Shown: in pieces, positions 54,901-57,900 of the stretch
How positions within the stretch are numbered: the first letter of the stretch is position 1
How the letters are laid out: the number at the start of each line of letters is the position of its first letter
Assembly: GCF_030013205.1 (NCBI RefSeq)
Contig: NZ_CP122648.1
Strand: one strand, 5' to 3'
Source: Escherichia coli
GTDB taxonomy: Bacteria; Pseudomonadota; Gammaproteobacteria; Enterobacterales; Enterobacteriaceae
DNA length: 64,000 nt
Made by a program: the position numbers

Positions 54901-57900
54901 TCCGGTGCGCGCATGATCTCTTTTTCGATAATCTTGTTCATATAGGCAGCGGCTTGATTTTCATCTGCCGGGTAGCCTTCCATCTCTGGGGTGATGTACA
55001 AACGATATCCGCTGTAATCCGCTTTTCTTACCATCGTTACGGTTAACATGGCTGCGCCAGAGAGACGTGAAAGGACATACGTACCATTGGTTGTGGCGAC
55101 ATTTTCCACCGCAAAGAATGGCGCGAAGGAGCTGCCTTTACGACCATAGTCCTGATCGGGAGCAAACCATACCGCTTCACCTTTCTTCAGTGCACCGACA
55201 ATGCCGCGCAGATTATTTCTGCCGATCATCGCTTTGTTAGAGCGCATGCGCCCACGGGTCTGCACCCATTCCATCAGCTGATTATTATGTGGACGATAGG
55301 TAGCCATCATTGGTTGGCACAGTCCCATCACGCGGCCGCCCAGTTCCAGCGACATAAAATGGACGCCGACAACCATTACGCCGCGATTTTGCATTTGTGC
55401 GCGTTTAAGGTTATCCAACCCTTCAACATCAAACCATTTACGTACGCGACTGTCGGGCCAGAACCACGCCATGCCGGTTTCTACCAGCGCCATGCCGAGT
55501 GAACGAAAGTTTTCGGCAATCATCTTCTCGCGTTCTTCCGCAGAATGCTGTGGGAAACAAAGTTCCAGGTTTTTACGGGCGATAGATTCACGCCGTTTCA
55601 GGAATGGTCGCGCCATTGCGCCAATACGCGTGCCGAGAAAGCAGAGAACAGGATAAGGAAGCTGTACCCAAAGCCAGAGTACACCAAGCCCAAACCACGT
55701 GAGCCAGTAGCGAGGATGCAGAAACTCGCGGGAAAATTTGCATTTTGGAAACATAGTTACCTTCTGTAGATACGAATTGTTGTATCGCAGAAGATTCCAT
55801 GTCGACAGCGGTACACTCAATTGATTAGGCCATCATGTACGACAATGGTTCCTGTAAAGAGTGTAAAGACTAGTCAGGACATAACCACGAGGAGCATGAA
55901 TGCGGTATCTGTACTTTATCACTCGCTGACTGCTTTCAGCTACTGATTATTAATCGTGCAAAGTAAATATTTTTCCGTACGCAACAGTCTTGCATTTAAC
56001 ATGCTGTTTTCATTGATGCTTAGCAAAAATTGCCAGAGGTTAAGGATTGTCTTACTATTAAAGTGACTGAAGTTACAGGTTTTTTAGCGCGGCAGGAGGT
56101 TGAGCTATGATTTATTTATGGATGTTTCTCGCCCTGTGTATTGTCTGCGTAAGCGGATACATCGGTCAGGTACTGAACGTGGTATCGGCGGTCTCTTCTT
56201 TCTTCGGCATGGTGATCCTCGCTGCACTCATTTATTACTTCACCATGTGGTTAACTGGCGGTAATGAACTGGTGACGGGGATATTTATGTTTCTTGCCCC
56301 GGCTTGTGGCTTGATGATTCGCTTTATGGTGGGATATGGCAGGCGGTAGTGGGTCAGGATGGCTCATTTGGGCAGGTGTTCACATCAGCATCAGACATGA
56401 TTGTTCACCTGCCGTGTGACAGACGCTATCGCACAGGATGGATAAGATAATTCGCCTTTGTCGGAAAAGGGGGCGGAATTTCTTCTGTGAGGTTTAATGG
56501 TGGCGCATCTTCTCTCATTTTTAACAAAATCGCCTGTGATGGCTGAAATTTTGTAGAGTGAGTTGTCGTCATCGCTGACGTTTTTTCCGTCTCTTTATAG
56601 CTCGCCTCACTACCACCACCAGAAATAGAAAATGCAAAAACATTGCATGCCATAATAGAGACCAATAAAAATAAGCTAAAAAGCATTAAGTTTACTTTCA
56701 TAGAAAGTTATCCTGAAAATGGTTCACTGAAAACCTACGACGTTATTGCTGTATTTACATATAATTAATCAGTATTTACATCGATATAATAAATGACATC
56801 TCTTTTTGGTATATAAGAATAGTTCTCTGTGACAGGAAGCATATTCCTACAATTGTAAGACTAAAATACTTCTTGCGATAATAACTACAACTGTAAGATA
56901 ACCCTTTCAAAATGACCGTTGCTCTCTGATTTCTCATTTCATGCTCACCCAATATGATGGCGGCGTTTTCTAAAACTGTTAAAGAATGAGGTAAGTATGA
57001 AACGTTTAATTATGGCTACGATGGTCACAGCAATTCTGGCATCTTCAACTGTATGGGCGGCTGATAATGCACCGGTAGCGGCACAACAGCAAACTCAGCA
57101 AGTTCAGCAAACCCAGAAAACGGCAGCAGCAGAGCGTATCTCTGAACAAGGTTTATATGCGATGCGTGACGTGCAGGTAGCGCGCTTGGCTCTGTTTCAT
57201 GGCGATCCGGAAAAGGCAAAAGAACTGACCAATGAAGCTTCAGCTTTGTTGTCAGATGACAGTACCGAATGGGCAAAGTTCGCTAAGCCAGGTAAAAAGA
57301 CCAATGTCAATGATGACCAATATATTGTCATTAATGCATCTGTCGGAATTTCTGAGAGTTATGTAGCGACACCCGAAAAAGAAGCCGCGATAAAAATTGC
57401 CAACGAAAAAATGGCGAAAGGGGATAAAAAGGGCGCAATGGAAGAGCTGCGCCTGGCCGGTGTTGGCGTAATGGAAAACCAATATCTGATGCCGCTCAAA
57501 CAGACTCGTAATGCACTTGCTGATGCGCAGAAACTGCTTGATAAAAAGCAATACTACGAGGCAAACCTGGCGCTTAAAGGTGCGGAAGATGGAATCATCG
57601 TCGATAGCGAAGCACTGTTTGTGAACTAACGCTGACAGGCAGTATATTGAGGTAAAGGATTTAACTCCCTCCAGCCGACAATTTTTTATGACCACAATAC
57701 GACAGGTTGTGGTCATAAAATTATTTGGCGCTCGCGGTTCTATAAACTCGCATTTTATCTTCCTCAAAGTAAACCGCAATAATCCCGTGTCATCACAAAT
57801 CATTTATTATGTTATGTTTTATGGTACGCTTTAAAAGGCGTAATCATACCCTTACTTGTAAATCACCGGCGCTTCTTACAGTTGTAAGAATAACATCACA

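Follow-up and report, generated by a model that had tools for sequence, protein, structure and literature searches.

EvgA-box inverted repeats upstream of yfdX and frc, and an IS200 insertion before yfdE, in an Escherichia coli oxalate locus

Genes and inverted repeats at the locus

The window, that is, the whole 64-kb stretch of Escherichia coli DNA that was analyzed, ends in a locus whose gene order, according to the RefSeq annotation of strain CFSAN061763 and of a K-12 derivative, is ypdI (−), yfdX, frc, oxc, yfdV, yfdE, evgS (−), and evgA (−). Pfam searches of the window detected YfdX, two family-III CoA-transferases (frc and yfdE), a TPP enzyme (oxc), a membrane transporter (yfdV), and an IS200-type Y1 transposase, and these hits, together with the RefSeq annotation of E. 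coli loci that match this one exactly or nearly so, bear out the gene names that an earlier note on this DNA had assigned. The genes are as follows.

56426–56701, − strand: ypdI, the divergent neighbor bounding the yfdX regulatory region (ORF list; RefSeq annotation of a 100% identical locus)
56997–57629, + strand: yfdX, periplasmic YfdX-family protein (Pfam PF10938, E = 2e-44; annotation)
58142–59392, + strand: frc (yfdW), formyl-CoA transferase (Pfam CoA_transf_3; annotation)
59446–61140, + strand: oxc (yfdU), oxalyl-CoA decarboxylase (Pfam TPP_enzyme N, M, and C domains; annotation)
61209–62153, + strand: yfdV, membrane transporter (Pfam Mem_trans; annotation)
62938–64000, + strand: yfdE, acetyl-CoA:oxalate CoA-transferase, cut by the window end (Pfam CoA_transf_3; annotation; alignment)

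Of the 5426 complete E. coli genomes, 5422 contain the region 56400–58200, which is 100% identical to CFSAN061763. The window belongs to a swine O139:H1/ETEC lineage, and its last 8 kb form an exact substring of three swine isolates (O139:H1, ETEC groups). The two intergenic regions have G+C contents of 32.5% and 36.9%, compared with 50.6% for the whole window. Although evgA itself is not part of the window, two genomes identical to its last 8 kb carry both evgS and evgA intact, and the EvgA of this lineage is WP_000991370.1, the same protein as in K-12. The possibility that evgA is a pseudogene in the lineage, as the frameshifted annotation of K_EC180 would have it, was rejected on these two intact sister genomes; K_EC180 contains three indels, all of them single-base deletions in homopolymer runs, so that its evgA "frameshift" is probably an assembly error.

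Inspection of the sequence located both 18-bp inverted repeats where the earlier note had placed them, the second being perfect as described there and lying within the 512-bp yfdX-frc spacer (57630–58141). A third, weaker repeat was found between box 1 and yfdX, 38 bp downstream of box 1 from center to center.

56844–56861, no strand assigned: EvgA box 1 (TTCCTACA-AT-TGTAAGAC), 135 nt upstream of the yfdX ATG (window search; identical in K-12)
56882–56899, no strand assigned: weaker third box, box 1′ (TAACTACA-AC-TGTAAGAT), with three mismatches; candidate secondary EvgA site, its function being presumed
57873–57890, no strand assigned: EvgA box 2 (perfect TTCTTACA-GT-TGTAAGAA), 251 nt upstream of the frc ATG (zero-mismatch match in K-12)

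The EvgA box consensus, which reportedly goes back to Masuda and Church 2003, is the 18-bp inverted repeat TTCYTACA-N2-TGTARGAA (half-site TTCYTACA), and EvgA boxes reportedly lie at yfdX, frc (yfdW), ydeP, safA-ydeO, and emrK/evgA (Masuda and Church 2003; Itou et al. 2009). The consensus was calibrated empirically on K-12 target promoters. Within 28 kb of K-12 MG1655, comprising two known EvgA-controlled regions, matches with up to two mismatches occurred upstream of safA (1 mismatch), ydeP (2), evgA/emrK (2), frc (0), and yfdX (1), and nowhere else. The consensus thus recovers the K-12 EvgA targets, and the fit to it that had been claimed for the two repeats was reproduced: box 2 (TTCTTACAGTTGTAAGAA), a perfect palindrome around GT, has no mismatch, and box 1 (TTCCTACAATTGTAAGAC) deviates from TTCYTACANNTGTARGAA only in its final C. 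When the window was searched for TTCYTACANNTGTARGAA, with 100 dinucleotide-preserving shuffles as the control, boxes 1 and 2 were the sole matches in the 64 kb at up to one mismatch, and none appeared in the 100 shuffles; at up to three mismatches, three matches were obtained (boxes 1, 2, and 1′ TAACTACAACTGTAAGAT) versus 0.52 expected for the 64-kb window.

The boxes are also conserved in a characteristic manner. In an alignment of eight diverse E. coli strains, in which approximately 20% of the intergenic columns are variable, none of the 16 half-site positions varies in either box 1 or box 2, and the only variable positions, 56853 in box 1 and 57882 in box 2, both fall in the central dinucleotide. 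This pattern, half-sites under sequence constraint around a free central dinucleotide, is that of an EvgA box. Only one of the 38 positions from box 2 to about 57909 (57872–57909) varies, as against 17 in the adjoining 44 nt upstream, and 5406 of 5426 E. coli genomes contain a 32-nt stretch around box 2. In box 1′, the core CTACA-NN-TGTAAGAT is constant among the eight strains, while the central dinucleotide (56890–56891), the non-consensus position 56883, and the linker 56862–56872 vary; box 1′ is a candidate third EvgA site, conserved but weaker. Across the frc-homologue loci of 80 genomes (1.49 Mb), matches with up to two mismatches were found in the E. coli locus only, upstream of yfdX, frc, and evgA, and the frc loci of other taxa (1.47 Mb) had no consensus match at this threshold. 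Moellerella and Providencia, for instance, carry frc-oxc-yfdV and a second frc without yfdX, yfdE, evgAS, or the boxes.

Published EvgA control and the yfdV-yfdE junction

Inverted repeats in front of yfdX and of yfdWUVE are published as EvgA binding sites, and these repeats induce "yfdX and yfdWUVE", which are given as separate units (PMC3720670). Johnson et al. 2014 reported an EvgA binding site in all genes known as directly regulated, with frc having the highest induction in evgS-constitutive mutants (PMC4283999); the log2 inductions in evgS-constitutive K-12 were 8.37 for frc, 6.97 for yfdX, 6.59 for oxc, 6.16 for yfdV, and 3.57 for yfdE (PMC4283999 supplement). At pH 5.8, yfdX, frc, oxc, and yfdV rank within the top 20 induced genes of K-12 (PMC10746267). 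The EvgAS acid-resistance control of yfdX and the oxalate genes, which had been proposed from the sequence, agrees with all three reports. Both boxes accordingly stand upstream of genes whose EvgA/EvgS dependence is published, and the two repeats are the already-published EvgA binding sites for yfdX and frc-oxc-yfdV.

Induction of yfdE in K-12 is about 6-fold below that of yfdV (a 2.6 log2 step), which matches a hairpin found between the two genes. In the window strain, an insertion sequence follows this hairpin.

62182–62212, + strand: native terminator-like hairpin after yfdV (GCCGAAG...CTTCGGC followed by T6; fold; identical in CFSAN061763 and K-12)
62213–62923, + strand: IS200C, 711 bp, with tnpA at 62356–62814 (empty-site alignment; RefSeq; Pfam Y1_Tnp)

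The yfdV hairpin, a stem-loop with a T6 tract as in an intrinsic terminator, folds with −14.5 kcal/mol (z = −5.5), is present in strains without the IS, and was missed by the terminator scan because its loop exceeds 8 nt. IS200C lies directly after the T6 tract in the orientation of the operon. Its boundaries by empty-site alignment, RefSeq, and Pfam substantiate the statement of the earlier note that an IS200 separates yfdV from yfdE. In the empty site (CFSAN061763 and K-12), the two flanks join with no bases repeated, so that the insertion is without a target-site duplication; the element encodes a Y1 (HUH) transposase (PF01797, E = 4e-38), and its 711 bp agree with the ~707 bp typical of IS200. 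It carries a left-end hairpin (62223–62245) and a right-end hairpin (62896–62914), and the yfdE ATG (62938) follows 14 bp after its right end with the ribosome-binding site kept. A second IS200C, oriented likewise, begins near position 36431 of the window. The yfdV-IS200-yfdE arrangement occurs in 17 of 5426 genomes, and all of the 12 among the matches listed come from swine or wild boar; this rare insertion is the only strain-specific part of the finding.

Further loss of EvgA-driven yfdE expression through IS200C is plausible from the sequence, and a polar effect on yfdE, taken alone, may be slightly favored. The IS200 left end was described as a bidirectional terminator against incoming transcription (nt 12–34), IS200 was discovered as a polar insertion, and the tnpA promoter is intrinsically weak (PMC4513863). 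The left-end hairpin of IS200C, at element nt 11–33 with −19 kcal/mol, corresponds to this terminator, and three hairpins in series now precede yfdE. A competing account, to which we give a substantial but smaller than even chance, is that the insertion is neutral, enough transcription passing through the IS or starting within it for EvgA to keep controlling yfdE at roughly the low level of the ancestor. Against the terminator argument, it can be held that the left-end hairpin has a poor T-tail on the + strand, with two T only, which makes its strength against incoming transcription uncertain; that the ribosome-binding site and ATG of yfdE are intact; that 17 genomes, from several countries, have kept the allele; and that yfdE is already weakly coupled in K-12 (3.57 vs 6.16 log2) and hence has little to lose. 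Since this copy was inserted just behind a terminator that was already there, it may add little. Given the native hairpin and the ~6-fold lower yfdE induction, the polar IS200C that we slightly favor would deepen an existing partial uncoupling and not create it, which qualifies the otherwise plausible suggestion of the earlier note that the IS may uncouple yfdE.

Transcription units and identity of the regulator

In much of the literature, yfdX-frc-oxc-yfdV-yfdE is treated as one "yfdXWUVE operon" (PMC3720670), which would be transcribed mainly from the yfdX promoter, with box 2 being auxiliary or vestigial. The features between yfdX and frc bear on this directly.

57684–57720, + strand: yfdX intrinsic-terminator hairpin (15-bp stem) followed by TTATTT (terminator scan; fold; kept in eight strains)
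56931–56958, + strand: candidate yfdX core promoter TTCTCA-16-TATGAT, low confidence (consensus scan)
57917–57944, + strand: candidate frc core promoter CTGATT-16-TATCAT, low confidence (by eye and from a table of −10-like hexamers)

The hairpin directly after yfdX has perfect 14-nt arms and folds with −18.7 kcal/mol (z = −6.2); as a stable GC-containing stem-loop with a T-tract, it has the makeup of an intrinsic terminator. Since a terminator follows yfdX and frc is induced more strongly than yfdX (8.37 vs 6.97 log2), an independent EvgA-dependent frc promoter is supported. Such a promoter was already stated by Mullins 2013, citing Masuda and Church 2003, and with this statement, the terminator, and the induction order all pointing the same way, the internal EvgA-dependent promoter for the oxalate genes that the earlier note had deduced from box 2 is upheld. 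Moreover, genomic SELEX located both RNA polymerase holoenzyme and H-NS in the frc-yfdX spacer, where the best promoter guess of that study was 57754–57783, upstream of box 2 (PMC3946193). A consensus promoter scan downstream of box 2 found no good sigma-70 match, which speaks for a single operon; nevertheless, that arrangement is hard to reconcile with the terminator, the stronger induction of frc, the perfect consensus of box 2 and its invariance across E. coli, the binding of RNA polymerase to the spacer, and the separate induction of "yfdX and yfdWUVE" (PMC3720670), and we consider it quite improbable.

The two-promoter reading, in which both repeats are EvgA operators, is in our judgment very likely correct, and its two-box, two-promoter layout is established knowledge and not novel. 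The candidate frc promoter falls in the nearly invariant block 57872–57909 and onward, and −10-like hexamers occur 56–62 nt from the box center at frc, yfdX (box 1′), safA, ydeP, and emrK. The candidate promoters would put the center of box 2 at about −69.5 and that of box 1′ at about −74.5, which suggests, from the sequence, that the boxes may be centered around −60 to −75, an upstream-activator position. These two placements differ by half a helical turn, so at least one of the candidates is probably wrong. The evgA leader length was considered as a guide and set aside, the evgA/emrK box lying ~120 bp upstream of the start, a distance that is not transferable to frc (PMC11210196). In an Rfam search of 56600–58250, the long frc leader matched no known RNA element; the only hit, to a miRNA, fell on the yfdX terminator hairpin and stayed below threshold (27 bits vs a gathering score of 92).

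Paralogy of the frc and yfdX promoter regions was also considered and rejected: local alignment gave only CTCTCTGATT, which is not significant (88 of 1000 shuffles). CTCTCTGATT does stand at an identical offset in both regions.

A further question is whether a different NarL/FixJ-type regulator, RcsB for example, is the main or an additional protein at the repeats, which would then not be EvgA-specific. The TAAGAA of the half-site resembles RcsB-box half-sites; the half-sites here are, however, arranged as TCTTA-N6-TAAGA, in the reverse order to the RcsB box. Expression of yfdX is RcsB-dependent in Klebsiella pneumoniae (PMC6394985), yet the motif co-occurs exclusively with known EvgA targets and with the presence of evgAS, and the genes respond to evgS-constitutive alleles, which leaves a regulator other than EvgA very improbable. 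Finally, although short AT-rich intergenic DNA is prone to palindromes, the reading of the repeats as chance matches without a regulatory role is effectively refuted by the empty shuffles (0 of 100 at up to one mismatch), the position of both sites in promoter regions of EvgA-induced genes, the conservation specific to the half-sites, and the near-universal presence of the sites in E. coli.

Proposed control, natural variants, and known systems

For the control by EvgA that we favor, the sites, with how specific and conserved they are, the terminators, and the ends of the IS come from the sequence, and EvgA dependence, binding, and induction ratios from the literature; where exactly the promoters and start sites lie, what box 1′ does, and a polar action of the IS are what we infer. 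Mildly acidic pH would lead the EvgS kinase to phosphorylate EvgA, a response regulator of the NarL/FixJ family. An EvgA dimer would then bind each 18-bp inverted repeat and activate an otherwise weak downstream promoter in AT-rich, H-NS-bound DNA; the AT-rich spacers and the H-NS binding fit EvgA acting at least partly against silencing. From the promoter served by box 1 and the weaker box 1′, a monocistronic yfdX transcript would be made that ends at the 57684–57720 hairpin, and the box 2 promoter would yield frc-oxc-yfdV with a leader of about 190–250 nt. At the hairpin and T6 after yfdV, part of the transcription would continue into yfdE, and IS200C, by adding its left-end terminator and right-end hairpin after the T-tract, would probably lower this EvgA-driven read-through still further.

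Reading of the raw sequence thus recovered a published architecture, namely two EvgA operators and the units yfdX and frc-oxc-yfdV(-yfdE). Its importance beyond confirmation is slight, and a specialist would not be surprised. The added value is modest: the terminators after yfdX and yfdV clarify the transcription units and match the published induction ratios.

The IS200 insertion and other cis-variants of the locus are minor leads. A 38-bp duplication of the yfdX operator, giving three boxes, was found in 415 genomes (about 8% of E. coli), IAI1 and PEC178 among them, and IS5 insertions interrupt box 1′ in other genomes, such as YJ6. It is conceivable, if rather doubtful, that such variants retune a fixed regulon: IS200C would remove yfdE, the oxalyl-CoA "priming" enzyme, from EvgA control in the swine O139:H1 lineage, and the strong-plus-weak yfdX tandem, duplicated by box-to-box recombination or interrupted by IS5, would shift the acid induction of yfdX between lineages. 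Together, IS200C before yfdE in 17 genomes, the 38-bp duplication, and IS5 in box 1′ could provide ready-made tests of EvgA promoter architecture.

BvgA of Bordetella is the closest studied homologue of EvgA, and at its operators a high-affinity upstream inverted repeat is accompanied by lower-affinity promoter-proximal sites that are filled cooperatively. This resembles yfdX, where the near-consensus box 1 lies upstream of the weaker, conserved, promoter-proximal box 1′; it differs in that the 38-bp box spacing at yfdX is not a whole number of helical turns, cooperative filling being a feature of BvgA. Compared with the polar IS200 insertions of Salmonella (hisD984::IS200), the copy here shares the 711-bp length, the Y1 transposase, the left-end hairpin, and the orientation along the transcription unit, but is intergenic and not in a coding sequence. 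The closest likeness is to the EvgA regulon boxes of K-12, with the same genes, positions, sequences, and regulator protein: boxes 1 and 2 are identical, strand allowed for, and the window strain differs by IS200C between yfdV and yfdE.

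Natural variants of the yfdX operator and of the evgA/emrK box

Comparison of the yfdX upstream region among E. coli strains found a 38-bp tandem duplication that has arisen between the two EvgA-box inverted repeats of this region, box 1 and the weaker box 1′, and gives three boxes upstream of yfdX. Its junction sequence was present in 415 of the 5426 complete E. coli genomes searched, including IAI1, while two or more junctions occurred in very few genomes, such as IBS28. In at least two genomes, YJ6 and ETEC6 (H45), an IS5 lies within box 1′. Since this insertion parts box 1 from the yfdX promoter, such genomes represent natural operator knock-outs at yfdX.

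Compared positions (L numbers are loci of comparison genomes)
window 56844-56899; L089:545-638; L093:360-453: 38-bp duplication
L094:407-520 (strain YJ6): IS5 within box 1′
L005:19729-19746; L091:13677-13694; L004:5514-5531: evgA/emrK intergenic box

Unlike the yfdX and frc boxes, which are invariant, the evgA/emrK intergenic box differs among strains: it matches the consensus perfectly in SCPM-O-B-8794 and departs from it at two positions in both K-12 and the O139:H1 lineage. In strain K_EC180 (L090:12838-16101), evgA, emrK and emrY are each annotated as a frameshifted pseudogene. These are most likely not true pseudogenes, because each change relative to sister genomes is a one-base deletion in a homopolymer run (T6, G5 or T6) and thus most likely an assembly error.

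Sequences downstream of the boxes

The following sequences lie on the downstream side of box 1′ or of box 2, the perfect EvgA box upstream of frc.

window 56922-56931 and 57913-57922: CTCTCTGATT, downstream of box 1′ and box 2, respectively
window 57973-58020: 15-codon ORF (MQKGIGSGDEMIFST) in a conserved part of the frc leader

CTCTCTGATT stands at exactly the same offset from both boxes, 23-32 nt after each, and at nearly this offset, 24-29 nt after the box, AGTCYT is found in the K-12 safA, ydeP and emrK promoters. This placement may mark a promoter element common to EvgA-dependent promoters, or it may be a coincidence. The 15-codon ORF is probably untranslated, because no Shine-Dalgarno sequence is visible for it; L005, which diverges most among the aligned E. 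coli strains, retains an ORF of about this length with an altered C-terminus.

IS200C insertion points and the oxalate cluster beyond E. coli

window 36431-37141: IS200C copy 1, preceded by AAAAAAACCGGGGAATTATCCCCGGCTTTTT
window 62213-62923: IS200C copy 2, preceded by the hairpin GCCGAAG...CTTCGGCTTTTTT

The two IS200C copies of the window each sit directly 3′ of a T-tract belonging to an intrinsic terminator hairpin, which suggests that such tracts are a preferred IS200C target. The copies have identical orientation and are separated by 25.8 kb, and as direct repeats they could mediate loss of this interval.

The oxalate loci of Moellerella wisconsensis and Providencia stuartii (L006 and L007) lack yfdX, evgAS and EvgA boxes, and in these loci frc-oxc-yfdV is accompanied by a second frc-like gene in place of yfdE. 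Within these comparisons, the oxalate cluster occurs together with yfdX, yfdE and EvgA control in E. coli only.
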